A DNA stretch of 64,000 nucleotides from Patescibacteria group bacterium (GTDB lineage Bacteria > Patescibacteriota > Patescibacteriia > UBA9934), in assembly GCA_038064675.1 (NCBI GenBank), contig JBBTSM010000002.1, positions 6,507-70,506 of the forward strand, in the 5' to 3' direction. The translations under genes and the position numbers were made by a program. This document shows positions 6,444-30,498 of the stretch, piece by piece; position 1 is the stretch's first letter; each line of letters opens with the position of its first letter. Below the pieces are notes generated by a model. The model was not told the DNA's origin, did no database searches, and saw nothing but the letters and a program-made list of their open reading frames with translations.

Positions 6444-7103
6444 TGGTATATGACCGACGAGGATCGAATAGCACGGCAGGAGAGTGTCGAGGGGAACGAC
6501 CTTCCGGATGCTGCAATTGCTGAAGTTTTTGATGCGTACGAACGAGTGATTCCTTTGCCGAAAGCTCCTGGGGTAAAGCCCTGGATATTGTGTGTTGTGG
6601 GACTCGTGGGCGCCGGAAAGACTACAGTGGTGAAGCCGGTGAGCGAGCGTCTTGGCCTGGCGCGAGTTTCAAGTGATGAGTTGCGTGTTCTTCTTCGTGA
6701 TCGCGGCTACAATTTTTTGAGAACGCGCGAATTGGCAAAGATGCTCATCGAGAAATATCTCCGGCAAGGATTCGGTGTTTCTATCGACGCAGACAATGTC
6801 GATCCAGAACATCAGGCGATTTTGCAGAAGGCTGCCGACGCTGCTCAGATTCCCATTATTCGCATCCATATCAATCCGCCCGAGGCATTCATTCTTGATA
6901 AGCTACAAAATCGCATTCAATACGTGCCATCGGGAATTTTGGAGAACGCCGACGCTGCCATCGCGAACTATTTCCGTCGAAAACCTTTGCATGAGAAATA
7001 TCTTTCGCTCATCACATTCGATTGGGTTTTTGATACCTCAAAAGATAATCTTGCTCGGCAGATCGACGATTTCGTGACCGCGATGCACGGTCGGGGATTC
7101 TAA
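6444..7103 (+). CDS. P-loop NTPase / predicted kinase (AAA_33-like)
   Basis: It has Walker A GLVGAGKTT. The start is taken at MTDEDR because the longer ORF would abut the divergent padR start. Confidence 0.55.
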   Translation, partial: WYMTDEDRIARQESVEGNDLPDAAIAEVFDAYERVIPLPKAPGVKPWILCVVGLVGAGKTTVVKPVSERLGLARVSSDELRVLLRDRGYNFLRTRELAKMLIEKYLRQGFGVSIDADNVDPEHQAILQKAADAAQIPIIRIHINPPEAFILDKLQNRIQYVPSGILENADAAIANYFRRKPLHEKYLSLITFDWVFDTSKDNLARQIDDFVTAMHGRGF

Positions 7104-15894: not shown

Positions 15895-15969
15895 GGCTCC
15901 ATCGTCTAATGGTTAGGACACGGGCTTTTCAAGCCTGTAACCGGGGTTCGACTCCCCGTGGAGTCACCA
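15895..15969 (+). tRNA. tRNA-Glu (anticodon UUC), CCA encoded
   Basis: A cloverleaf was folded by hand. The acceptor is GGCTCCA/TGGAGTC. The anticodon loop is TTTTCAA. The T-loop is GGTTCGACTCC. Confidence 0.8.
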
Positions 15970-17449
15970 AATGCGACTCACCCACAAGGTGAGCCGTTTT
16001 TGTTTGTAAGATAAGCGCTTTTTTGGCGGTTCCAAATTGTCCGTCTGCGAATGGCAAACCTTCGGGAAAAAGTAAGCTTTGGAACCGTAATTTATGGGTG
16101 AGTGAAAACGCTTCCCACGCAACGCGAGGGTTACGCATGATGTTGATACCGTACTCGACAACATGTCCGATTTCATCGGACGTGCGCGGGATTAGCACGA
16201 GCTCTTGCTCGCACTCGGTTATGGCCTTTTTCGTCTTTGCAACGAGGTCGCGGGTGGTATCATCGTCGAGTACTTGCGCGAAGTTTTTACGAGCAAAATG
16301 CTCCTGCTCACCTTTCAAAGAGAGGATTTGTTTCTCCAACTCCTGCCGCCGTTTTTCATTTGCCGTTCCCGCCGCCTTCCAATTTTCCTCAATCGCAATG
16401 CGCAGAAGAACAGCAAGCCCTTCGTCCATACACGACTGCTCCAAAATTGTCATAAATGCTTTTTCAATTTCCGCTTTCGCCACGTTTGACTTCGGGCAGA
16501 TGTTGCAGCGATAAAATGGGTAGCGCTGCCCGCTCCGTCCTTTTGATAGCGACGCGGTAAACCGATGGCCCTTCGGACAGGTAGCGAATCGTCGCAAAGG
16601 AAAATCAGCTCGTTGTTTTTGGTACTTCGGTGCGCATTTGTTCTGGCGAGCGAGTATCGCCTGCACGCGATCAAACAATTCTTCGCTCACAATTGGCTCA
16701 AACGTCCCTTTTACGGGTTTACCGTACTCCTTTGCGAACGCCCGAATGTAACCCTTGTATACGGGATTATGTAGGATTTTGTTCCAGTATTTTATGCAAA
16801 CAGATTTGCCGTTCAACCTCGTAAAGCCCTCTCCTGTGAGTACTGCGAGCGCTTCCGTTTGCGTATAGCCGTGCTCGACGAGCTCGAACCCGTGACGGAT
16901 ATGTCCTGCGTAGGGCTCATGTGGTGCGACAGTCGCCTTATTGAGTACACGCACCCGTATGAATCCAAGCGTCGGCCTCGAAATATACCTACCTTCTCCA
17001 ACGGCACTGACCATGCCATTACGCGATTTCAGTGCACGCAATTCATTATCGAGCTGCGCCATGCCAACGTACATGTTCTCAAAAAATCTTCCTTCTGGTG
17101 TGTCATCAGTGGGTTGGGTTACAGAAACACAGCGGACGCCCAATCGCTTGAAAAAAGCTCGCAGAACATGGAAATCGGCGCTGTCACGCGTGAAGCGCGA
17201 AAAGTCGTAGAAATATACGGTAGAAACCTCGTGCTTATGCGCCTCAACGTACTGCATCATCTTTCGAAGCTCGGTGCGGTCGATGGTTTTTGCGCTCTCA
17301 CCACGATCAATAAAAATACTTTCAGGAAGTACGGTTTCTCCCGCCGTAGTTGCTAATTTGCGACCCTCTTTTTCTTGAAAATCCAAACTCGTCCCTTTCT
17401 CGGCCTGACGAACGGTTGAGACGCGGTTATAGAGGACGGCAATTGGCAT
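15929..17449 (-). CDS. large serine recombinase (resolvase/invertase N-domain + recombinase/zinc-ribbon C-domain)
   Basis: The N-terminal catalytic region is AVLYNRVSTVRQ...GESAKT. It is about 506 aa. The last about 13 codons are encoded opposite the tRNA-Glu 3' half. Confidence 0.85.
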   Translation of the reverse strand: MPIAVLYNRVSTVRQAEKGTSLDFQEKEGRKLATTAGETVLPESIFIDRGESAKTIDRTELRKMMQYVEAHKHEVSTVYFYDFSRFTRDSADFHVLRAFFKRLGVRCVSVTQPTDDTPEGRFFENMYVGMAQLDNELRALKSRNGMVSAVGEGRYISRPTLGFIRVRVLNKATVAPHEPYAGHIRHGFELVEHGYTQTEALAVLTGEGFTRLNGKSVCIKYWNKILHNPVYKGYIRAFAKEYGKPVKGTFEPIVSEELFDRVQAILARQNKCAPKYQKQRADFPLRRFATCPKGHRFTASLSKGRSGQRYPFYRCNICPKSNVAKAEIEKAFMTILEQSCMDEGLAVLLRIAIEENWKAAGTANEKRRQELEKQILSLKGEQEHFARKNFAQVLDDDTTRDLVAKTKKAITECEQELVLIPRTSDEIGHVVEYGINIMRNPRVAWEAFSLTHKLRFQSLLFPEGLPFADGQFGTAKKALILQTKTAHLVGESHLVTPRGVEPRLQA

Positions 17450-19201: not shown

Positions 19202-19738
19202 CTACCGCTGCGGTTCGCCGCGATAGCTACGGCGGTGATCTTCCTCGCAGGACCGCGCCTCCGCCTCGCTGGCGCACGCGAAGGCGTAGCTATCGCCCCG
19301 CAGGTCGGTAGGGCCACCTCCGACTTTGACCCTGAACGGCGCGGGGTTGTTACCGCGGTAGAGGGAGACGAAGCCGAACTTGTCCGCCATCTCCTCACTG
19401 ACCGTGACCCAGTTCCTGCCGCATTCGACGATCCACGCCTTCGTCTCCTCGACGAGGGCGAGAGCGCCATCGCGGGTCTTGGTGCTGTAGTGCCCTTGCA
19501 ACCGCATGCCGTCCCCAGTCCTGATCTCGATGCGATAGATCTCCAACGGCGCGTACTGCCCGCCGCTGATCGAGAGGATCGCGGCGCTGACGATCTGCTT
19601 CTTGGAGCGAGGACAGGTGGCGGGCGGGTTCTCCATCATCAGGGTGAAGTGGTGGGTGTGTCCCTGAAAGAAGAAGAGATCGCCGATCAGATCGCTCTTG
19701 CTCGGTCCCGCGATGATGCGGAACGTTGTGGTAGCCAT
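19202..19738 (-). CDS. hypothetical protein in GC-rich patch
   Basis: The patch is about 62% GC against a 50% background. The minus-strand ORF has a balanced composition. The overlapping plus ORF is Arg/Ala/Leu-rich and looks antisense. Confidence 0.35.
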   Translation of the reverse strand: MATTTFRIIAGPSKSDLIGDLFFFQGHTHHFTLMMENPPATCPRSKKQIVSAAILSISGGQYAPLEIYRIEIRTGDGMRLQGHYSTKTRDGALALVEETKAWIVECGRNWVTVSEEMADKFGFVSLYRGNNPAPFRVKVGGGPTDLRGDSYAFACASEAEARSCEEDHRRSYRGEPQR

Positions 19739-19958
19739 AACGGCTCCTTCTGTGTTGAACACCTTCGTCGTTGAGAGTGAAGGTAAGCTCCGTTACGCCG
19801 CATCGCTGCCGCGCCACCTGACCATAACGGACAGGGATTTTCGAGCGTGTGCCCGTCGGCAGCCACGACTTTCGTCATGCTCACCGAAGGACACAGCTCC
19901 ACTATAACGTCATATTATACCAGAAAATGGATACTTTGTCAATAAAATATCTCGTAAA

Positions 19959-19997: not shown

Positions 19998-21665
19998 TTA
20001 TACAAATACCCGTGTTTCACCCCTTATTGGTAGTACTATACGCCCGCATATTGGGGTTTTCTTGCCTCCATTCCGATGGCATATAGCTGTTTTAGCTCTC
20101 CCACGAGCTGGTTCCAAAACTCTACCGATTGGCTCACCAAAAGCTTCTCCGTCGAATATGACGGGGATGTTTTTGTTATGGACGAATTCTTTGCAGAGAT
20201 AATCAAGCGGAGCATTGAGAATGGCCTTGTAAAGTTTGCCGTCGCGCACGATGAGGTCTTTGAAGACGATGGCGAGGATCTGACGCTTCAACGGCTCAGG
20301 AGCCCGTTTGTAGGCCTTAGGGAGATCACGAATGAACGCCACTGCTCGCTCCAGAATTTGAATGGCCGATTGGATCATTGTTTGGTTCGCCTCCAGCCGC
20401 GCTTTGCAGCGAGCCCGATCGGAAGAAACTTCTTCACGGATGGTTTCGTAAATTTCCTCACTGAGTTTATTTTCCAGATACTTGTTCACGAGCGCCCGCT
20501 CTTTAGCGTCCAGCTCTTCAATCTTTCGCGTAAGCTCCCGACGCTCTTTCGTCACGGACGTCTGTTCTCGCTCGTGGATTTCTTGCAGCTTCTTCTCAAT
20601 GCGCCCAACGATGCGTGCGGGCAAACGCACCACTTTCAACGCTTTCAAAACTTCGCCCTCCAGCTGGGTCGTTTCAACGTAGGACTGCGAGCAGAAGACG
20701 GGGTGACCTTCCCGTTTCTTGGAGCAGCGGTAATAAGAAATTACTCGACCCGAGGAAGTCGTCTGTTTTTCGTAAGTAATACCACCGCCACACTCCCCAC
20801 AAATCATAATCCCGCGAAGCAGAAAAGCGTTCTTTCGTTTCTTGCTGCGTCCATGCACTCGATCTTCCAAAGCAAACTGGACGCGCTGAAAAAGTTCTCG
20901 GGAAATGAGAGGCACGTGCGATCCCTTCGCTTCAACGCCATTCCAGCGGATGGAACCGATGTAGAAGGGATTTTTGAGCATGCGGCAGATAACCGAACCG
21001 GATAGCGGCTTATCGACACGCCCCTGCCGAATGCCCTGCGAGTAGAGCCACTTGGTCAACTCGATCGCTGTGTATTGTCCGGTCGCAAACATTTCAAAGA
21101 CCTTTACCGCAAGGTCGCGCGTCTTCGGATCGGGGGCGACATACTTTCTTTCGATGCCGTCGGAGTCGATCTCCTTCACGTTTTTGTAGCCAAATCCAGC
21201 TTTGGTATTCCAAAGTCCCTGCTGGGCACGCTGGTTCATGCCCTTGAGCACGTCTCGGCCAAGGTTGAGTGACTGGTACTCCGCCATTGCAGCAAGAATG
21301 CCCTCTGTGAATTTTCCCTCCGGTGTCTCGTCGATGTTTTCCGTGGCAGAAATGAGCTTGATCTTCTTTTTGCGGAGAGTTCCGACAATGGCCGCATGGT
21401 CGATGGTGTTACGCGCAAGACGGCTGACTTGGTGAACGTATACCGCGTCGATACCGCCCTGTCTGCAGCGATCTAATAGCGCCTGAAGACCCGGCCGAGC
21501 GTCAGTACGCGCAGATTCTCCCTCGTCACGAAATATGTGCCCAATCTCGTAGCCATCAGCGGCGGCACGCGTTTTGCAGACCTCCTCCTGCGCGGGCAAG
21601 GAAAATCCCCGCTCGGCTTGCCGGTCGGTTGAAACACGTAAATAGAGAAGTGCTATTTTACTCAT
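19998..21665 (-). CDS. large serine recombinase (second copy, different sequence)
   Basis: It has ALLYLRVSTDRQ...GESART... and is 555 aa. Confidence 0.85.
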   Translation of the reverse strand: MSKIALLYLRVSTDRQAERGFSLPAQEEVCKTRAAADGYEIGHIFRDEGESARTDARPGLQALLDRCRQGGIDAVYVHQVSRLARNTIDHAAIVGTLRKKKIKLISATENIDETPEGKFTEGILAAMAEYQSLNLGRDVLKGMNQRAQQGLWNTKAGFGYKNVKEIDSDGIERKYVAPDPKTRDLAVKVFEMFATGQYTAIELTKWLYSQGIRQGRVDKPLSGSVICRMLKNPFYIGSIRWNGVEAKGSHVPLISRELFQRVQFALEDRVHGRSKKRKNAFLLRGIMICGECGGGITYEKQTTSSGRVISYYRCSKKREGHPVFCSQSYVETTQLEGEVLKALKVVRLPARIVGRIEKKLQEIHEREQTSVTKERRELTRKIEELDAKERALVNKYLENKLSEEIYETIREEVSSDRARCKARLEANQTMIQSAIQILERAVAFIRDLPKAYKRAPEPLKRQILAIVFKDLIVRDGKLYKAILNAPLDYLCKEFVHNKNIPVIFDGEAFGEPIGRVLEPARGRAKTAICHRNGGKKTPICGRIVLPIRGETRVFV

Positions 21666-21865: not shown

Positions 21866-22459
21866 TCAATCAGGAGTTTCTGCAGTGCCCGCAGAAAAGT
21901 TTCCGCAGTCCCGAGTGTCGGTTATTGCGGCACGTCGTGCCTCGGCTCCTATGAGATTTTTATAGGTGAATTTTTCATCATCCCCGCCTCCATATGCGAC
22001 CCATCGCTTCTGATGGGGGACAAAAAGAATCACCTTGCCGTCAGGGAGAGCTTTTGCCGGATCCTTTCCAAAACGTAAACCTCCTTTGTTTACATATTTC
22101 TTATTCACTACATCTTGTTTGTATTCGCCCTGCCGAAGGGGAGGTACTCGCTCACCCGAATACCCCCCTTCGCCCTGCCGAATGGGTGTATGAGGAAAAA
22201 CATATCGGTTCACATGACCGGCTGTACGGGCCACACTCAGCCACCCTGCCTTTTCTAGCTTTATGACTGACTCGTAGAGGCATGTGAGGCCAATTTTATT
22301 CTTCGTCTTCTTGCGGAGTGCTGCATTGGAAGGATTGCATTGCCCAGTTCTGCCATTACGAAAAGATTGCAAAACCCCATATACCCAGTAATCTCGAAAG
22401 CTGAGATCTGGGTCGAGGGCTATGCCGTGAGGGTTCATTGAAAATCCTTTATTCTCCAT
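21866..22459 (-). CDS. hypothetical protein (island cargo)
   Basis: The ORF is 197 aa. No motif was recognised. Confidence 0.35.
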   Translation of the reverse strand: MENKGFSMNPHGIALDPDLSFRDYWVYGVLQSFRNGRTGQCNPSNAALRKKTKNKIGLTCLYESVIKLEKAGWLSVARTAGHVNRYVFPHTPIRQGEGGYSGERVPPLRQGEYKQDVVNKKYVNKGGLRFGKDPAKALPDGKVILFVPHQKRWVAYGGGDDEKFTYKNLIGAEARRAAITDTRDCGNFSAGTAETPD

Positions 22460-22469
22460 ATTCTTCTGC

Positions 22470-22742
22470 TCAAATTCCGTCGTAGAGGATGGACTTCAAC
22501 CGCTTAATCGCATTTACAAATGCAGGAGCGTGAACCAGCGCGTCGTGCCCAAGAGTAAACTCATTAGTCAGACGTCTTACATCGCCATCGTCCGCAAAAA
22601 TAAACGTCGCTCGGCTACCGTCTCGCTCGCAGTTCACGATGCGCTTACCGTGGGCAAGGAGATATGCCGCGAGGTAAAAATTACTCGTTGGAAACTCCAC
22701 GATCTCTGTTTTCATACGTATTCTGATCCGGCTGCCGTGCAA
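22470..22742 (-). CDS. small hypothetical protein (island cargo)
   Basis: The ORF is about 80-90 aa. Its true start is probably MKTEIVEF. Confidence 0.35.
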   Translation of the reverse strand: MHGSRIRIRMKTEIVEFPTSNFYLAAYLLAHGKRIVNCERDGSRATFIFADDGDVRRLTNEFTLGHDALVHAPAFVNAIKRLKSILYDGI

Positions 22743-22880: not shown

Positions 22881-23576
22881 TTAGTGAAACCGCTTTTTTG
22901 CACGATGTTTTTGCAGCTTTATGCGTTTGACCTCGGCATCCTCCTTTGCCTTTGAAGGAAATTCGTCGTCTACGTTCATCTGGGCGGCGATGTCGCGATT
23001 GGTTTTGATCATTGCTATCGGTTCGCCCGTATCGCTGTCGATGCCGTTGATGACGCCCTTTTGATGATGTAGCTTGAGAACTTTGGCATTTTCTTCGGCA
23101 TTGGGTCGACTTCTTGGGCTTTTATGCCCCATAGCTTCGTGAATGTCTTTTACGAGCTTATCACGCAGGCGCTTCTCTCCAGTTGCGAGTGGCATATCTT
23201 CAGCGTGTTCAATACGTTTTGAACCGGCGGTGATAGTGACGGAAAAGTTTCCCGGAATATGGCGGATCTTATTTAGCACGAGAAAATACCGCACTGCATC
23301 GTGATAGTTTTCAGCGAGCTTTAACTTCTCCAGCATGACGCGGATAGCGCATTTCAGTTCCATGTGCCGACGCGCTACATCGGCCATTGGGATTCCGTCT
23401 GGGCGAAGCCAAACGGCAGCGGCTGGTGCCGTTTCAAAACCCTCAGCGGGTATGCCAATACTCGTGCGCAGCTTCTGTGCAATCGCATCTCCATTACAGT
23501 AAGCCAACCGCTCAACAAAACGTTGGCGGTTTATTTCCGTGGCCTTTTCAGCCAATTCTAAATCCTTATTCTTCAT
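22881..23576 (-). CDS. hypothetical protein (island cargo)
   Basis: The ORF is 231 aa. It has a basic C-terminus. Confidence 0.4.
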   Translation of the reverse strand: MKNKDLELAEKATEINRQRFVERLAYCNGDAIAQKLRTSIGIPAEGFETAPAAAVWLRPDGIPMADVARRHMELKCAIRVMLEKLKLAENYHDAVRYFLVLNKIRHIPGNFSVTITAGSKRIEHAEDMPLATGEKRLRDKLVKDIHEAMGHKSPRSRPNAEENAKVLKLHHQKGVINGIDSDTGEPIAMIKTNRDIAAQMNVDDEFPSKAKEDAEVKRIKLQKHRAKKRFH

Positions 23577-23661
23577 ATTCTCGCCCTTGCTTACCAGTGT
23601 AATTCCTGTAAACTATCCTTACAATCTGCCTAAACCGGCTTCGGCCGGCATGGCACTAAAT

Positions 23662-23813
23662 CCACGCAAATAGAGACGGTCTCGTGACCGGCCCATTTGC
23701 GTGGTTCGTATTCGAAAGAATACGAGGCGGCTCCGAAAGGTGTCCGTCGCCGGCTCGCGGAACCTTTTGTGTTCCGCGACCCCAAGAAAATAATTCGTAA
23801 AACCACGCAAATA
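23662..23813. promoter_or_regulatory. three copies of CACGCAAAT(A) motif (two direct, one inverted) in divergent intergenic region
   Basis: CCACGCAAATA is at 23662. The inverted copy ATTTGCGTGG is at 23695. CCACGCAAATA is at 23803 and overlaps the ATG of the downstream ORF. Confidence 0.4.
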
Positions 23814-24313
23814 TGTCAGACGCAACGAGACCGATCTACCGAATGTGGTGGTTCTGGGTCGCGGCAGTGTTCGTTTTTCTAATGATCGTCGGCGCGATGT
23901 CGGGTGGATCCACGCCAACCAACGACAGCACGTCACAAGAGGCCACAACCCCGATAGTGAACGGCGAGCATTTGCTCGGGTTGACGATTGACGAGGTGCG
24001 CGAGGAGATGGGAATCCCTGATGACGAGAGCACCATGGACCCGACCGCGCAGCAGCTAGCGCTTGGTGGCACGAGTACGTGGACGAACCAGTACACGGTC
24101 AGCGATCACACTATCGTGCTCGATTTCGATATGAAGTCGCGGCAGGTCACCGGCTTCTTCATTGGCACCGACGAGAAAGACGGGATTACGCGCGACTGGA
24201 AGGCACTGCTCCCGCTTAGTGGTCTTTCTGAGGACGCGCAGGGATACTCCATCAAGCCAATCGGTGCGCTCAAGAGTCCCGGCTTCTACACCGGAGTGCA
24301 GGCGACGGAATAG
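23813..24313 (+). CDS. membrane-anchored hypothetical protein
   Basis: One N-terminal TM (WWFWVAAVFVFLMIVGA) is followed by a soluble domain. Confidence 0.4.
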   Translation: MSDATRPIYRMWWFWVAAVFVFLMIVGAMSGGSTPTNDSTSQEATTPIVNGEHLLGLTIDEVREEMGIPDDESTMDPTAQQLALGGTSTWTNQYTVSDHTIVLDFDMKSRQVTGFFIGTDEKDGITRDWKALLPLSGLSEDAQGYSIKPIGALKSPGFYTGVQATE

Positions 24314-24333: not shown

Positions 24334-25767
24334 CTACATGATCAAGTGATCAAATTTGGCTTTTAACTTTTCAAATAATGCCTGATCTCCACCCTGTTGC
24401 TTAGCTTTAACAAGCTCAAAAACATCCTCATCATCAAGCGGAATCATAAACCCGCGGTCATCAACCGCAGTATCCTTGCAACGCTGCAAAAGGAGAGTTT
24501 TGTTTTCAATTTTTCTACAAACAAGAAAACCAAACTTTCCCCGACTAGGACCAAACCGGCCAGACAGTTGGTCGATCTCTGGATTGGCCGGATCGTCCGA
24601 ATAGTTTTTACATTCAACAAAAACCATTTGAGCGGGGTAGTGACTACCAAGCCAGTGAAAGAATCCGTTACTCATCACATTAACATAGCTGATGTCGATT
24701 CTCTTTCTACCGCTGTGGAGCTCGTGCTGAACATGTGGGTTGGTGAGTGCAGGATAAAATAAGGCCGAAAGCAAAGCTTCTATGGCTTTTTCGTACCGAT
24801 CTGCTTCCGCATTGCCGACCTGTGTCTGTTGTACCTCGCCGATTAGAGCATCCCAGTCCGGCAAAACTGATCCTTCAATAGCGGCAAGCTCAGAATGACT
24901 CAATGGAGGCGAAATATGTCGCTTCACTTCTTCTCGATACCGTTTCAGGATCGCGGGGTTCCTCAGAGTTTCCCGCGCGTTTACTGCCTTGCCAAACCCA
25001 TATTTTTCTTTTACCGATTTTTTGGTGACTCTTACACCACCCTTTTTAAGTACCTGTACCAATGAAGAGTTGGCAGAGATTTCTTCACGTTGCAGGTGTG
25101 GAATGATGTAATCGCGAAAATACTTATCAGGATTGTAGTTCAAGTCCTGACGTACAATCCCTTTTGGCACAAGAAGAAGCCGACCATCGTTCACCGTTGG
25201 TAGCCGAGCGTATTCAACTTTCCATGAACGACTCGCAGGATCCCACAATGGGCCAGAAACCACGTCGTCCGTAAGGGGTATTCCGTAAGTTTCGCACATT
25301 TCCTGTGTGTAGCGAATCAGGAAAGGCCTAATAAGGTTCGTTGTTATGTCGGAGACGATGTCAACGTCAATTCCAGGTACCATCAAAACGGTTTCTTCGA
25401 GATCTTCCAATAACCCTGTTTTAGCCGCTTCACTTTTGCTTAAAGCATCCCAAACAGTTCCCGCTAAAAGGTTGCCCATCCCTCGGCCGTGCGAAACTCC
25501 AACCGAAAGCCCAAGATGTGTTTCATTAGGTTCCCCCAGTGAAGAAAGCAAGCGCCTTGCGTTTTCATGATCACCGCTCTGGATAGAAGAAATGACGGCC
25601 TTAAAAAAGTTCTGGATGATGGAGATGCACTCGCTTGCCCATACCGAGGAGAGGAGCTTCAAAGAAAGCGGGTCAACAAAAAGAGGGGTGTCATTGACGA
25701 CATCCACGTCCACGAAATCAAGGGTTGGTTGACTTCGACCTAAAGAAAAATGCTCAGAAATTCTCAT
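24334..25767 (-). CDS. PD-(D/E)xK nuclease-fold protein (C-terminal), unknown N-terminal domain; defence candidate
   Basis: The C-terminal GRKRIDISYVN...QMVFVECKNYS...EIDQLSGR matches the D...(E)xK core arrangement of restriction-endonuclease-like folds. Confidence 0.45.
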   Translation of the reverse strand: MRISEHFSLGRSQPTLDFVDVDVVNDTPLFVDPLSLKLLSSVWASECISIIQNFFKAVISSIQSGDHENARRLLSSLGEPNETHLGLSVGVSHGRGMGNLLAGTVWDALSKSEAAKTGLLEDLEETVLMVPGIDVDIVSDITTNLIRPFLIRYTQEMCETYGIPLTDDVVSGPLWDPASRSWKVEYARLPTVNDGRLLLVPKGIVRQDLNYNPDKYFRDYIIPHLQREEISANSSLVQVLKKGGVRVTKKSVKEKYGFGKAVNARETLRNPAILKRYREEVKRHISPPLSHSELAAIEGSVLPDWDALIGEVQQTQVGNAEADRYEKAIEALLSALFYPALTNPHVQHELHSGRKRIDISYVNVMSNGFFHWLGSHYPAQMVFVECKNYSDDPANPEIDQLSGRFGPSRGKFGFLVCRKIENKTLLLQRCKDTAVDDRGFMIPLDDEDVFELVKAKQQGGDQALFEKLKAKFDHLIM

Positions 25768-25814
25768 GCTTATTCTTAGTTCGGCGAACCTAGTTTTTTG
25801 GGAATCCGCAGTCC

Positions 25815-26648
25815 CTACGCTTGCGGAGGTTGGTACCCCAGCTTATAGAGCGCTCCATTGAGCGACCCCTTATGCCCCGCAATTTTTTCTTGCCAAGCTT
25901 TTATCAGGGAATCATCTAAAGATTTCATGAACTCAGTGCGGATTTGTTCGTTCCCCCACTCGACATAATTGAGAATCTTTTCTTCAGTTAGATTGGAAAA
26001 GATCTTTGATCTCGCGTAGACAAAGAGTGGCCCATCGTTCGCGGAAATCGCTCCTCTCGCGCTATTGAAAGTTCTAATTTTGCCTCGTAGCTCTAGGTCT
26101 ATTTGGCTCCCTTTGGCTAGCGCCTCGTCAGCAATCTTTTTGAACTCCAAAAGGCGATAGAGAAGCATCGAGTCGCTGGGCTCTGCGGCCTTTGTGATGT
26201 TCTCAATATGCTTCAGTACAAGATTATAAACTCGGTTAATCGGCGTTCCGTGAAGATAGAAGGTGGCCCCTTCACTTTCGTCCATGACCCATGGCGTGGC
26301 TCCTTTGCTCAACTCCATCTGGAATTCTGGCTCGAAGACGGACTTAATCCAGCTATGTGCTTCTCTAGCGGCTCTAATTCTTTCGACGTTAACGGCGAAG
26401 AGATGTTGAATAAGAATCATTGCCAAGGAGACGAACAGGGTGACGAATCCGGCACCAATCAACTCGATAATCAAGGATTCTCGAAAGGAGCTTGAAAGTG
26501 ACGTCCCTCTTCCAAGGAAGTAGACGATTGTCGTTAAAAACAAAACGAATCCAACGATCAGTAAAGTGATTTTTGTTTTCTCTCCAACTTTCATAGCAGC
26601 TTTACTCAAAACTGCCTTTATTCTCTCATAAAATCTAGGAAATTTCAA
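25815..26648 (-). CDS. 2-TM membrane protein with cytoplasmic C-terminal domain (partner of the nuclease-fold gene)
   Basis: Two hydrophobic helices lie within residues 26-82. It is co-oriented with and 47 bp upstream of 24334..25767. Confidence 0.45.
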   Translation of the reverse strand: MKFPRFYERIKAVLSKAAMKVGEKTKITLLIVGFVLFLTTIVYFLGRGTSLSSSFRESLIIELIGAGFVTLFVSLAMILIQHLFAVNVERIRAAREAHSWIKSVFEPEFQMELSKGATPWVMDESEGATFYLHGTPINRVYNLVLKHIENITKAAEPSDSMLLYRLLEFKKIADEALAKGSQIDLELRGKIRTFNSARGAISANDGPLFVYARSKIFSNLTEEKILNYVEWGNEQIRTEFMKSLDDSLIKAWQEKIAGHKGSLNGALYKLGYQPPQA

Positions 26649-26790
26649 TCATGGGTGCGTTGTGTTAACAACAAACCCCGCGTCGAGAACGACACGAGCG
26701 CGCCGTCCTCGAGGGGAGCGGGGCTTGTCGTCTCACGCGGGGCGAGAGAAGGGTACGCGTTGTCACACTGCACCCGAGGTGCGAGGCCGA

Positions 26791-27312
26791 TCACCACACG
26801 TTCGCGTCTCGCATGGCGGCGATCTGGTCGCGGAGGCCTTCGTTGTTGCTGGCCGCGATGATGCGCTCGACCAGCTCGTCGTCCATCAGGCCGAGCTCCC
26901 TCGCCGCGAGCACGCACACGGCCTCGTCCTCCTCCTCGCTGAACCCGGAGAAGGAGAAGATCATGTCGTCCGCGAGGGCGATCGCGCCGCCGTAGGCGCG
27001 GTCACGCTTGTCGGGCGCGGTCACGTCGCGGGTCTGGAAGCTGGAGACGTGGTCGGGGTGGCGCGACAGGCGCTCGGCCTTCTCGAGGGCGTGGTGGGCG
27101 TACTTGCGCACCTGCTCCCCGGAGGGGCGACGCACCTCGAAGCAGATGACGCACGGGATCTCCCCGCGTCGCCAGTAGGCGAAGAAGCCGCCCGTACGGG
27201 TACGGTCACGGATCGCGACGAGAGGGCCGATGCGTCCTGCGGCGTGGAGAACGGCGAGATCGAGCCGTCCTGCGGCTTCGGAACGGGAACAGGCGCGGAG
27301 AGGGAGTTCCAA
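26791..27312 (-). CDS. hypothetical protein in GC-rich patch
   Basis: The patch is about 65% GC. The minus ORF is more protein-like than the overlapping plus ORFs. Confidence 0.35.
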   Translation of the reverse strand: MELPLRACSRSEAAGRLDLAVLHAAGRIGPLVAIRDRTRTGGFFAYWRRGEIPCVICFEVRRPSGEQVRKYAHHALEKAERLSRHPDHVSSFQTRDVTAPDKRDRAYGGAIALADDMIFSFSGFSEEEDEAVCVLAARELGLMDDELVERIIAASNNEGLRDQIAAMRDANVW

Positions 27313-27499
27313 GAGTCCTCCAGAATCGGAAGAGGGTGGATGCCATTCGCCCCAAGACAGGGCTATTGCGAGCGCAAGTTAGCAAAAAGTCGCCGTTTTG
27401 TCTACACGACGATAGCAAGGGAATCAAAATTAAACCGCAGCAGCAGGAGCTTTTCCTTGTTTTTCAGGAGGTATTCGGTTAACGATGCTTTAGGTTCAC

Positions 27500-27537
27500 C
27501 ACAAGAAAACCACCCTTTATTGGGTGGTTTTCTTGTG
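27500..27537. terminator. 16-bp perfect palindrome CACAAGAAAACCACCC-tttatt-GGGTGGTTTTCTTGTG (bidirectional terminator-like; near island right edge)
   Basis: Read from the sequence. Confidence 0.45.
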
Positions 27538-27640
27538 TGTATAAAGGATAAAACCGATCGTGTTAGGGGACTCTAAAAGCAATAGCTCCTTTAAACATTT
27601 GTCCATTTATCCACCGTGCTCATTGGTGTGGTTTGGTAGG

Positions 27641-28396
27641 ATGTTTCCCAATATGTCAGCTGATCTCCTTTCGCTGCTTACTGCAGCCACCTTTACTCCG
27701 TCTGAAGCGAAAACGTATCTTACCGGCCTTGAGCTTGGGAGCGCGACGCTTTCGGATATTGTGAAGCGTGGAGGGATTTCGAAAACTTCGGCGTTTGAAG
27801 CGCTTGAATCGTTAAAGGATCGAAAGCTCGTGCGTGCAACCCGCCAAAAGGGTCGGGTCATTTATCGAGTCGCTGATGCAGGGAAAGTGGTGGACGTGTT
27901 ACGCGCGAAAATTGCAGAACAGTCCACGACGATCGATGACGTGGTGCGTGCATTGCCGTTATTTACCGCGCTGCAAGGTGGCACACAGCCTTCGACGATG
28001 ATTTACGAAGGCATTGATGCGGTTCATGGATATTTTGCGCATTTAGAAAAAGTTCAGCCCGATACACTGGATGAAATCGCGAATGGTGATGATATTTATA
28101 CGTGGATAGACCCTGAAGAAATTCGCAAAGCAAGGAAGTTATATCGATGGATTCCAAAACACCCAAGGACGCTGTATGTTGGTACGCCAAAAAACTGGAA
28201 TCCAAAATTTGCGCACCGCGTATTGAACAAGGCGTGGGGGACGTTCCGCGGGAATTTGGCGATTTACGGAAATTTTGTCTCCGTACTAACGTACACCACT
28301 CGACCGATTACGATTATCATCGAAGCAAAGGCGCTCGCAGATTCGCTTCGACTGTTGTTCGGAATCGCATGGCGAGCGAGTGACGACCCGAAATAA
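27641..28396 (+). CDS. TrmB-like winged-helix transcriptional regulator
   Basis: There is an N-terminal wHTH (TPSEAKTYLTGLELGSATLSDIVKRGGISKTSAFEALESL). There is a C-terminal domain of about 250 aa. Confidence 0.55.
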   Translation: MFPNMSADLLSLLTAATFTPSEAKTYLTGLELGSATLSDIVKRGGISKTSAFEALESLKDRKLVRATRQKGRVIYRVADAGKVVDVLRAKIAEQSTTIDDVVRALPLFTALQGGTQPSTMIYEGIDAVHGYFAHLEKVQPDTLDEIANGDDIYTWIDPEEIRKARKLYRWIPKHPRTLYVGTPKNWNPKFAHRVLNKAWGTFRGNLAIYGNFVSVLTYTTRPITIIIEAKALADSLRLLFGIAWRASDDPK

Positions 28397-28430: not shown

Positions 28431-29006
28431 TTATGCCATGAATCGTACCTCCGCCGCCGCCCAGTTGAGGTTGGCGAACACGGCGTTCACGTAGTCTGCG
28501 CGTTGTGCCGGCACGTAGTCGAGGAGATACGCATGCTCCCACACATCGAGGGCAAAGAGGACTTCGCAACCGGCGAGGTGGCCGACTTCGTGATCGGATA
28601 CCCAAATGTTGCGCAATGTATTTGTGGTGCGATCGAGCACTAAAAGTACCCACCCAATTCCACGCATCATCGCCATGGCTTTTACTTCATTCTTCCAGCT
28701 ATCGATCGATCCGTAGTATCCAGCAATCGCATCGGCGAGCGGGCCGGTCATTGATCCATCGCCACCAAGGCTCGCGAAGTAGATCTCGTGCAAACGCATG
28801 CCGTTCCATTCGAATGCGTATCGACGAGTAAGCTCGGAAAGCGCAATCGCGTTTGCCTCTGAATCCTTTTTGTATTCATCGATTTTTGCTATGACCGCAT
28901 TTACGTTCTTCACATATCCTGCGTACAGCTTGAGGTGCGCTTCGATCTGTTTCGCAGACAATCCTGTCATCTCTGGAAGGTTGAACCTTGCTTCTGAGTA
29001 AGGCAT
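28431..29006 (-). CDS. sod: Fe/Mn superoxide dismutase
   Basis: DVWEHAYY-type motif is present (LDVWEHAYLLDY). The metal ligands His and Asp are present. Confidence 0.9.
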   Translation of the reverse strand: MPYSEARFNLPEMTGLSAKQIEAHLKLYAGYVKNVNAVIAKIDEYKKDSEANAIALSELTRRYAFEWNGMRLHEIYFASLGGDGSMTGPLADAIAGYYGSIDSWKNEVKAMAMMRGIGWVLLVLDRTTNTLRNIWVSDHEVGHLAGCEVLFALDVWEHAYLLDYVPAQRADYVNAVFANLNWAAAEVRFMA

Positions 29007-29056: not shown

Positions 29057-30061
29057 ATGCGGATTTTTGCCATTGAAAGTAGCTGTGACGAGACCGCTGT
29101 GGCGATTCTGAACGGAGTCGATGGCGTTCTTTGCGTTGAGTCATCGCTGATCCGATCGCAGATTGATATTCACACCATATATGGCGGAGTGGTTCCAGAA
29201 GTTGGAGCTCGTCAGCATCTCGAGATGATCTCGCCGATGATCGCAAGGATGGTTCGTCCGGATGGTGCGGGTATTGATGCGATTGCGGTGACGGCGGGTC
29301 CTGGTCTTGCTCCGGCCCTACGGGTTGGTGTGGAGGTCGCAAAAACGTTAGCGTGGGCGTGGAGGAAGCCGCTTATCCCGGTTTGTCATCTCGAGGGGCA
29401 CATTTACGCAAACTGGATCGATAGTGTTCCGGAGTTTCCTGTGCTTGCATTGATCGTTTCCGGTGGACATACGGAGCTCGTTCTTATGCGTGATCACGGA
29501 AACTTTGAACGGCTTGGTGAGACGCTCGACGATGCCGCGGGAGAAGCATTCGATAAAGTCGCGAGGATGATGGGGCTTCCATATCCGGGCGGCCCGGCTG
29601 TTGATCGGCTTGCGGTGCAGGGCAACCCGAAGGCTTTCACATTTCCAAGACCGATGATGAATCGAGACGACGCAATGTTCAGTTTCTCCGGTTTAAAGAC
29701 TGCGGTGTTGTATGAGCTGAGGAAGAATGAATCTCGAATGGCGGACGAATCGTTCCGTGCCGACATCGCCGCATCGTTTCAAGAAGCGATCGTCGAGACG
29801 CTCGTCGAAAAAACGATGCGTACGGCGTGGAAGTGCATGCCAAAGAGTATTATTCTCGCGGGCGGTGTTGCGGCGAATGCGCAATTGCGAGATCGGCTGA
29901 AGACGGCAACGGAAGATCGGGGCATGACGATGCATTTGCCGCCGTTTCAATACTCTCTTGATAACGCGGCAATGATCGGTGCTGCGGGATATTTTCGAGC
30001 CGTGCGTGGCATCAGTGCCGATCCGCTGACGTTGGTTGTGGATCCGAACCAGGACATATGA
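29057..30061 (+). CDS. tsaD: tRNA N6-threonylcarbamoyladenosine synthase TsaD (Kae1/Gcp)
   Basis: It begins MRIFAIESSCDETAVAIL. It has HxxH metal motifs. Confidence 0.9.
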   Translation: MRIFAIESSCDETAVAILNGVDGVLCVESSLIRSQIDIHTIYGGVVPEVGARQHLEMISPMIARMVRPDGAGIDAIAVTAGPGLAPALRVGVEVAKTLAWAWRKPLIPVCHLEGHIYANWIDSVPEFPVLALIVSGGHTELVLMRDHGNFERLGETLDDAAGEAFDKVARMMGLPYPGGPAVDRLAVQGNPKAFTFPRPMMNRDDAMFSFSGLKTAVLYELRKNESRMADESFRADIAASFQEAIVETLVEKTMRTAWKCMPKSIILAGGVAANAQLRDRLKTATEDRGMTMHLPPFQYSLDNAAMIGAAGYFRAVRGISADPLTLVVDPNQDI

Positions 30062-30498
30062 CCGATACGACCTATAAGACCAATGCTCCTGAAGAAACTC
30101 AGGCGGTCGCCGCCGAGCTTGCGCAACATCTTGTTGGTGGTGAGTTCATTGCGTTGATCGGCGATCTTGGTGCGGGGAAGACCACGTTTACCCAAGGGCT
30201 TGTTGCCGCGATTGGATCGACAGCCCGCGTAAAATCGCCGACGTTTACCGTCATGAATGAATACGCAGTCTCGAGTCACCCAACAATTCGTCGAGTGGTC
30301 CATTGCGATTTCTATCGATTCACAAAGGCAGAAGAACTCGGCGCTCTCGAGCTTGATGAGTATCGGCGGCTTGATACGGTGATTATTGCTGAATGGCCCG
30401 ACGTGTTGCCTACCGTGGCATGGGAACCGACATATACGGTCAGGATCGAACATGAAGATGAGCAATCTCGGACGATTACGATTGAAGAGGGGATGTGA
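30058..30498 (+). CDS. tsaE: t6A ATPase TsaE (YjeE)
   Basis: It has the P-loop GDLGAGKTTFTQGL. It overlaps tsaD by 4 bp. Confidence 0.8.
   Translation: MTDTTYKTNAPEETQAVAAELAQHLVGGEFIALIGDLGAGKTTFTQGLVAAIGSTARVKSPTFTVMNEYAVSSHPTIRRVVHCDFYRFTKAEELGALELDEYRRLDTVIIAEWPDVLPTVAWEPTYTVRIEHEDEQSRTITIEEGM

Follow-up and report, generated by a model that had tools for sequence, protein, structure and literature searches.

The question raised by this locus is whether two adjacent genes, one for a small membrane protein and one for a protein with a nuclease-like C-terminus, work together as a phage defence module or whether one of them carries such a function alone. The genes lie in a window of 64,000 nucleotides (the whole stretch of DNA that was analysed; positions 6,507 to 70,506 of contig JBBTSM010000002.1, assembly GCA_038064675.1) from a Patescibacteria metagenome-assembled genome, in which the pair bears the locus tags AAB473_01115 and AAB473_01120. 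As the coordinates of the open reading frames (ORFs) confirm, both are on the minus strand, point in the same direction and are separated by exactly 47 bp, and the existence of homologue clusters for each indicates that they are genuine genes and not chance ORFs. Both are found within a mobile element that contains a large serine recombinase, so the recombinase-bearing setting reported by an earlier, sequence-only reading of this DNA was confirmed, and a defence role for the nuclease is plausible. The reading favoured here, to which a probability of roughly 0.6 is assigned, is that the 477-aa protein is a self-contained enzyme with two domains, a member of the DUF8370 family that is carried as a single-gene defence cargo and acts alone. 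The two genes are as follows.

24334..25767, minus strand: DUF8370/PDC-M36A-like protein, 477 aa, ATG start, cargo gene (from the ORF and family matches).
25815..26594, minus strand: membrane protein, 259 aa, two transmembrane helices, an element backbone gene bordering the cargo slot.

The sequence-only reading had proposed that the two-helix protein and the nuclease form a two-gene module, a dedicated anti-phage system in which the membrane protein would be sensor or effector. This proposal draws on the co-orientation of the genes, on the 47-bp gap, in which neither a terminator nor a promoter is predicted, and on the presence of both genes in a mobile element; pairs of a membrane protein and an enzyme are also common among defence systems. 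However, the proposed module failed when co-occurrence was examined. A relative of the membrane protein was absent from all 104 other DUF8370 loci (0/104), a set collected across genomes, metagenomes, plasmids and IMG/VR contigs, and none of the five other membrane-protein loci (0/5) contained a DUF8370 gene. The closest relative of the nuclease (74% identity, locus L014) is near a serine-recombinase remnant and has no membrane gene beside it, while homologues of the membrane protein, in five loci from three sister elements, stand beside unrelated cargo that is sometimes on the opposite strand. In addition, the sizes of the two families differ more than 400-fold, with 6 clusters for the membrane protein and at least 2,481 for the 477-aa protein. 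Because the two genes do not co-occur elsewhere, an outcome that had been set beforehand as one that speaks against the pair, they very probably do not constitute a system; a dedicated two-gene system is scarcely credible as an explanation of this locus, and the pair is not worth pursuing as a pair.

The nuclease, by contrast with the earlier statement that no named system could be matched, is recognised by both the PADLOC family PDC-M36A and the Pfam family DUF8370. Two PADLOC models of PDC-M36A match the 477-aa protein (PDLC04597, E 1.8e-42; PDLC04598, E 9e-19), phrog_27295 covers it end to end (E 5e-138), and an identical database protein (P0001) and all 120 listed homologues are tagged PF28123, the DUF8370 family, by precomputed tags that were not scored here; Pfam and NCBIfam scans of the protein, with a local Pfam copy that does not include PF28123, gave no match. 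Homologue clusters for this protein reach E-values down to 1e-244, an exhaustive search of 1.84 billion representatives (E<=1e-3) recovered 2,383 clusters at 50% identity, and the ~480-aa architecture is retained down to ~33% identity among the family clusters. Named sources of the family include Patescibacteria, Acidobacteriota, Pyxidicoccus, Planctomicrobium, Paractinoplanes, Bacillus mycoides, Leptolyngbya and Methylobacterium, and it spans at least eight phyla at ~55% identity; therefore, it is likely that these genes are frequently transferred horizontally. Members were found on IMG/VR viral contigs, no relative was present in 50,697 deposited phage genomes, and searches of PDB sequences with close and divergent DUF8370 profiles returned nothing below E 0.3. 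There are also rare full-length fusions of DUF8370 to a PNP_UDP_1 nucleoside-phosphorylase domain (P0204, 751 aa, E 5e-15; P0267, 1144 aa, E 6e-20), a domain with an effector role in some defence systems, Detocs among them.

The PADLOC matches connect the protein to a published catalogue, in which PDC stands for 'phage defence candidate' and denotes 145 single- or multi-gene candidates that were inferred because their genes sit inside BREX, DISARM or type I restriction-modification (R-M) systems and that are presented as untested (Payne et al., bioRxiv 10.1101/2024.01.29.577857). One of these, PDC-M36, is a three-gene cassette (FAM_01399>>FAM_00303>>FAM_00303) seen 90 times (bioRxiv 10.1101/2024.01.29.577857). 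The 477-aa protein and PDC-M36A are of the same family over their full length, and many relatives lie within or beside R-M systems, as the founders of the family do, whereas the gene is solitary here and in ~100 other loci. The finding adds a member to a catalogued candidate family and is not a new system. Given the strong match to both PDC-M36A models and the 90 occurrences of the three-gene cassette, it could be argued that the gene is an orphan A component that depends on its absent cassette partners and that the copy in this element is an incomplete or inactive remnant. Several results speak against this possibility: PADLOC found nothing for the membrane protein or for the 166-, 197-, 231- and 173-aa ORFs, so no other PDC-M36 cassette gene is present among the island ORFs that were tested; no recurrent partner was detected in 102 loci from many phyla; the gene is intact, with every catalytic residue and every invariant residue of the N-terminal domain kept; and the identity of ~55% across phyla implies selection on a solitary gene. 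An orphaned remnant is thus improbable as an explanation for this gene.

The organisation of the 477-aa protein is given below.

24337..24813, minus strand: PD-(D/E)xK (Mrr-like) nuclease domain, residues 319-477 (from conservation, predicted topology and fold matches).
24694-24696, 24613-24615 and 24607-24609, minus strand: catalytic codons for D358, E385 and K387, respectively.
24868..25767, minus strand: N-terminal domain, residues 1-~300, with no recognisable fold (from conservation; a separable module).

The sequence motifs on which a restriction-endonuclease-like C-terminal domain had been proposed (GRKRIDISYVN, QMVFVECKNYS and EIDQLSGR) are all present, and the D/(E)xK spacing is right (D358...E385-x-K387). 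Conservation of these positions among homologues had been suggested as a check, and an alignment of 232 sequences (231 homologues and the query) bears it out, with D358 conserved in 97%, E385 in 98%, K387 in 97% and Q400 in 96% of the sequences and all of them intact in the window copy. In an AlphaFold2 (AF2) model of the protein (predicted local distance difference test score, pLDDT, 86; predicted template modelling score, pTM, 0.85), DSSP assigns helices (H) and strands (E) as H319-337, E341-346, E359-363, E381-387, H401-404 and E412-417, which places D358 just before the predicted strand 359-363 and E385-x-K387 within the predicted strand 381-387; this predicted alpha-beta-beta-beta-alpha-beta core is the canonical PD-(D/E)xK layout. 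Among 50 divergent relatives, 21 match Mrr_cat (PF04471) at E<=1 (best E 8e-4), the sole Pfam family that is matched repeatedly, and HSDR_N_2 and NA-iREase1 come next. When the model was compared with the PDB by Foldseek, the top matches were FokI, VC1899, Nt.BspD6I, Can2, Cap4 and MunI, none below 1e-3, and the top matches in BFVD are annotated as 'Restriction endonuclease' (probabilities 0.98-0.99). The nuclease fold of the C-terminal domain is well supported by these data and is highly probable; nuclease activity of the protein is inferred.

The N-terminal region of ~300 aa, which had been described as unrecognised, indeed has no match in Pfam, NCBIfam, PDB sequences, PDB folds or BFVD. It is predicted to be mostly helical, with an invariant EPNET...G...G loop (residues 79-99) that is flexible in the AF2 model, and seven of its residues (D26, E79, D136, S139, D140, T154 and P201) are conserved at 99.6-100% in the 232 sequences. 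These invariant acidic, Ser and Thr positions point to a domain that may bind a ligand or a metal or be catalytic. The domain also has an existence of its own: phrog_30194 has only the N-terminal part in common with the 477-aa protein, and the N domain alone forms a 288-318-aa protein in ~49 plasmid records, including a 4.5-kb plasmid of B. cereus and a plasmid of B. amyloliquefaciens on which its gene adjoins rep. A role of the N domain as a plasmid Rep protein was considered and rejected because the 4.5-kb B. cereus plasmid encodes its own, separate RepL-like gene, whose product serves as its Rep.

To analyse the genomic habit of DUF8370 genes, the three genes on either side were clustered for 102 loci. 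The neighbour family that recurred most, with a sequence motif that looks like HsdS (the type I specificity subunit), was found in 11 of the 102 loci and at variable positions; next came integrases, in 7 loci, and a DNA methyltransferase, in 6. Among immediate neighbours, no PADLOC or Pfam family exceeded 6/150 (MTase_III 6, MTase_II 4), and the recurring ones include parts of type III, II and I R-M systems, ResIII, UvrD and DEAD helicases, integrases, phage portals, reverse transcriptases and SieB. Individual genes were found with GmrSD; with a type I R-M system; with a reverse transcriptase, an EcoRI-type methylase and GmrSD-HNH; with DEAD and T5orf172; and, on a B. mycoides plasmid, between TOPRIM plus UvrD genes (Gabija-like) and McrBC. 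DUF8370 genes are thus solitary, without a constant partner, in neighbourhoods that are rich in defence genes. The small genes upstream of DUF8370 in loci L008-L010 were examined as a conserved partner and rejected, as they are unrelated.

These neighbourhoods also bear on the possibility of an ordinary R-M system, of Type II, IIS or III, with the 477-aa protein as its endonuclease. The appearance of FokI and then Nt.BspD6I among the best PDB fold matches would fit such a role, as would the fact that methyltransferases are the commonest immediate neighbours. However, there is no methyltransferase in the element studied here, ~90% of DUF8370 loci have no adjacent one, and the methyltransferases found are parts of complete R-M systems, with DUF8370 apparently embedded in them, as in the discovery of the PDCs. 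A conventional R-M endonuclease is therefore highly unlikely.

Some relatives are carried by phage-like DNA. In the viral contigs L096 and L103, the DUF8370 gene follows a terminase gene and a portal gene whose product is 71% identical to phiCTX gpQ. This position is on the gpQ side of the cos-proximal region, which in P2-like phages serves as the defence hotspot (Rousset et al. 2022, PMC9122126). A 907-aa ORF that adjoins DUF8370 in the phiCTX-like prophage contig (L096 9079-11802, minus strand) was evaluated as gpA, the other border of a P2-type hotspot, and rejected, since it is not gpA. Relatives of this hypothetical protein are scattered, with one in Leptospira phage LE1 (46% identity) and others in a Ralstonia phage and in gut phages, and its gene may be another sporadic cargo gene.

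The position of the nuclease gene in this element was examined by comparison with sister elements. The components of the element, apart from the two genes listed above, are these.

19998..21665, minus strand: large serine recombinase (integrase; phrog_95 integrase, 6e-100).
21866..22459, minus strand: 197-aa element protein with weak similarity to replication initiators (phrog_270, 7e-5) and a weak helix-turn-helix (HTH) match (HTH_36, 5e-3, below the Pfam cut-off).
22470..22742, minus strand: DUF5659 protein, 90 aa, backbone (Pfam PF18903, 1.3e-9), with homologues in all sister elements.
22881..23576, minus strand: 231-aa backbone protein, 38% identical to the syntenic 225-aa protein of L006.
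23627..23744, plus strand: LOOT RNA (Rfam RF03000), full-length, scoring 73.6 bits where the gathering score is 46.4.
23813..24313, plus strand: 166-aa protein with one N-terminal transmembrane helix, the other border of the slot, convergent with the nuclease gene and 67% identical to the product of an L005 gene in the same place.
26620..26648, minus strand: promoter-like site TTGAAA-17 nt-GAGAAT, with TG, preceding the membrane-protein gene (a consensus match only).
26677..26698, minus strand: terminator-like hairpin at a sharp GC shift from ~0.69 to ~0.42.

The element is ~7 kb in size, is of the serine-recombinase type and has no virion genes; its order is large serine recombinase, 197-aa protein, DUF5659 protein, 231-aa protein, LOOT RNA, 166-aa protein, slot and 259-aa membrane protein. 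Its recombinase is 60% identical to that of L005, which has Resolvase, Recombinase and Zn_ribbon_recom domains, and identities to the sister copies are 56-59% for the DUF5659 protein and 65-70% for the membrane protein. The contents of the slot beside the membrane gene differ from one element to the next: the 477-aa gene occupies it in the window, a 350-aa SNase-type protein is encoded there on the opposite strand in L005, a trypsin-like protein and a KAP NTPase are found in L006, and three genes without an assigned identity are present in L002-L004. When the slot genes of the sister elements were compared with PADLOC, matches were found to C3a212 'SNc+LTD' (1.2e-45), PDC-S45 (1.2e-20) and PDC-S20 (2e-39, with PifA at 6e-30). 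The slot is thus a swappable cargo position, of which the nuclease is one interchangeable cargo, in a comparison that covers four distinct element variants. In P2-like phages, and likewise in P4 satellites, defence hotspots have a similar arrangement, in which backbone genes surround a slot for differing anti-phage genes (Rousset et al. 2022, PMC9122126); unlike them, the element described here is a small serine-recombinase element that lacks virion genes and is represented by only four compared variants.

The LOOT RNA lies in the intergenic region between the 231-aa and 166-aa genes, and it is syntenic in L002 (9071-9200), L003 (6501-6630), L004 (4227-4356), L005 (8708-8837) and L006 (9470-9603), with scores of 60-67 bits. 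Because it occupies this position in all five sister loci, it appears to be a fixed component of the serine-recombinase/DUF5659 element family; a literature search found no functional description of LOOT. The 166-aa protein at the border of the slot is encoded with an unusually high GC content at third codon positions (GC3, 0.74) and has weak PHROG matches, over the transmembrane segment only, to Sie-like superinfection-exclusion proteins.

For the membrane protein, the earlier description of two hydrophobic helices followed by a soluble domain was upheld (Kyte-Doolittle hydropathy and an AF2 model, with a soluble part of ~190 aa), but its length of 277 aa, from a TTG start in an ORF at 25815..26648, was not. 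The start is placed at the ATG at 26594, which yields 259 aa, because all homologues begin at the residue that corresponds to M19 of the long ORF, which is invariant, the L006 reading frame stops immediately upstream of this position, and NCBI calls a 259-aa protein. The TTG proposed earlier coincides with the -35 hexamer of the promoter-like site at 26648..26620, in a region where the number of promoter-like matches is not above the shuffled expectation. The protein is rare, with only 6 clusters among 5.8 billion proteins, including five homologous clusters at 39-70% identity, and a profile search for further relatives gave no additional ones. It has no Pfam, NCBIfam, PADLOC, PHROG or PDB-fold match; its AF2 models are all-helical but disagree with one another (five models, pLDDT from 84 down to 51), and the Foldseek matches were limited to helical bundles of a generic kind (best E 0.11). 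Usable genomic context is available for four homologue clusters, which correspond to five loci (L002-L006) in three distinct sister elements, and the cargo beside the membrane gene differs between these elements. The membrane protein is therefore a backbone gene product of this element family, not the partner of the nuclease.

Taken with the conservation of the two domains, these features lead to a model in which the 477-aa protein would act alone as an anti-phage or anti-plasmid nuclease. Its C-terminal Mrr-like domain would cleave nucleic acid, and the N domain would recognise a target or signal, or contribute a second catalytic activity, and would in this way control DNA cleavage by the C-terminal domain. 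Since such an enzyme would require no methyltransferase or other partner, it would resemble Type IV restriction enzymes or the nucleases of abortive infection. Like the Mrr-type Type IV enzymes, the protein has a D...ExK core, stands alone without a cognate methyltransferase and occurs in defence islands, but the Mrr_cat matches of its relatives are below threshold and its N domain is larger than, and unrelated to, the Mrr winged helix. The Type IIS enzymes FokI and Nt.BspD6I have the same layout, a large N-terminal module followed by a small C-terminal nuclease, and are the best PDB fold matches; however, they align over the nuclease core only, and the 477-aa protein has no methyltransferase partner. 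Another layout of this kind, an N-terminal sensor with a C-terminal PD-(D/E)xK domain, is that of Can2/Card1 (VC1899) and Cap4, which are also among the top fold matches; Pfam and PADLOC detected no SAVED or CARF domain in the 477-aa protein, and no cyclase or CRISPR genes were seen among the surveyed DUF8370 neighbours. An anti-phage function of the protein is, on balance, somewhat better than an even bet.

Several points weigh against a self-contained defence enzyme. Members of the DUF8370 family are putative defence genes, candidates by catalogue and not by assay, a literature search found no mention of DUF8370 or PDC-M36, and only the A component of the PDC-M36 cassette is present in this element. 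The window protein itself has no Pfam match to Mrr_cat at E<=1, and the Foldseek matches in the PDB are weak (best E 5e-3; FokI 4.8e-3, probability 0.77; TM-scores ~0.2), although these E-values are weak because the matches cover the small nuclease core alone. The 47-bp gap has no predicted terminator, so the nuclease may be read through from the promoter of the membrane gene; co-transcription of the two genes in this element is therefore possible, as a feature of the local arrangement only. Residues of the N domain are more conserved than the nuclease triad, and this domain has no assigned function. Finally, in two Nocardiaceae plasmids the N-domain-only gene is directly downstream of a conserved 138-aa gene, and the family could serve the maintenance of mobile elements rather than host defence.

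The 138-aa gene is found at L112 2876-3292 (Rhodococcus ruber) and at L115 2924-3340 (Prescottella equi); the two products are 79% identical, have no Pfam match and are, by the annotation of one depositor, a 'putative plasmid addiction protein'. Its N-terminus presumably resembles those of AbrB/MazE-type antitoxins, and its arrangement with the N-domain-only gene hints at a toxin-antitoxin-like pair.

This arrangement is part of the case for a selfish factor, in which DUF8370 would be an addiction toxin, or a phage or plasmid nuclease directed at rivals or the host, and the N domain would provide the primary activity, toxic or enzymatic. Such a function would be consistent with the presence of DUF8370 on IMG/VR viral contigs and in a PHROG of its own, with the N domain alone on tiny plasmids beside rep genes or, in the two Nocardiaceae plasmids, directly after the 'addiction' gene, and with the stronger conservation of the N domain. 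On the other hand, 'addiction' is a depositor's label, many chromosomal copies are in or beside R-M and other immune systems, and the deposited phage genomes gave no match. The two explanations also overlap because defence genes borne by prophages or other elements protect the host as well. A selfish maintenance or competition factor is accordingly considered unlikely, and a single-gene defence cargo remains the preferred explanation.

A broader proposal can be made tentatively, as its parts together are rather doubtful. In it, DUF8370 would be a widespread single-protein immune nuclease, its N domain would be a new sensing or catalytic module that also works alone on plasmids, possibly as an addiction toxin, and the element would be the first described defence-cargo hotspot of Patescibacteria (Candidate Phyla Radiation, CPR), one that gives the orphan LOOT motif a genomic home. 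Apart from this proposal, the 477-aa gene offers an intact, clean example of a large family (the 2,383 clusters at 50% identity) that is catalogued only as a candidate, and new biochemistry might be found in its N domain, which is better conserved than the nuclease active site. To our knowledge, the immune repertoire of CPR bacteria is poorly known; the element shows in compact form how defence cargo can be swapped in these organisms, and it also ties the LOOT RNA motif to a mobile element.

The borders of the element were examined by base composition and by comparison of loci. The window has a GC content of ~0.52, with sharp shifts at ~19900 and ~26690 and further GC-rich patches elsewhere, and the hairpin at 26677..26698 may mark the limit of an AT-richer element core. 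GC-rich ORFs flank this core at 19202-19762 and 26791-27312 (both minus strand; GC 0.63 and 0.69, GC3 0.83 and 0.88, respectively) and have no Pfam or PADLOC matches. That these flanks are homologous duplications of an attachment (att) site was considered and rejected, as they have no similarity beyond a 13-nt match.

A segment of ~130 nt is conserved in three otherwise different loci, at ~27405-27539 in the window (minus sense), 3867-4031 in L005 and 5797-5883 in L014. It consists of a terminator-like hairpin, AAAACCACCC...GGGTGGTTTT, then GTGGTGAACCTAAAGC-TCGTTAACCGAATA, and has no Rfam match. In L005 it lies 2 kb past the membrane-protein gene, with DUF5680, DUF4145 and 192-aa genes between, and in L014 it is directly upstream of the DUF8370 gene. 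The segment may be an element end or att flank; a second variable region would then extend over 26650-27400.

On the other side of the element, a second large serine recombinase (15929-17449, minus strand, 506 aa) is only distantly related, being 26% identical to the L005 recombinase, and at its 3' end it overlaps an oppositely oriented tRNA-Glu(TTC) gene (15895-15969, plus strand); genes for 170-aa and 278-aa proteins follow. This arrangement suggests that the element studied here is in tandem with another integrative element. Just outside the element is a gene for a TrmB-type HTH regulator (27560-28396, plus strand; Pfam 2e-9), a flanking 278-aa protein for which PADLOC gave only a weak match to Csa3 (HTH; 5.6e-4). 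Beside it are superoxide dismutase-like (28431-29006) and tsaD/tsaE-like (29057-30498) genes, labels that come from reading the translations.

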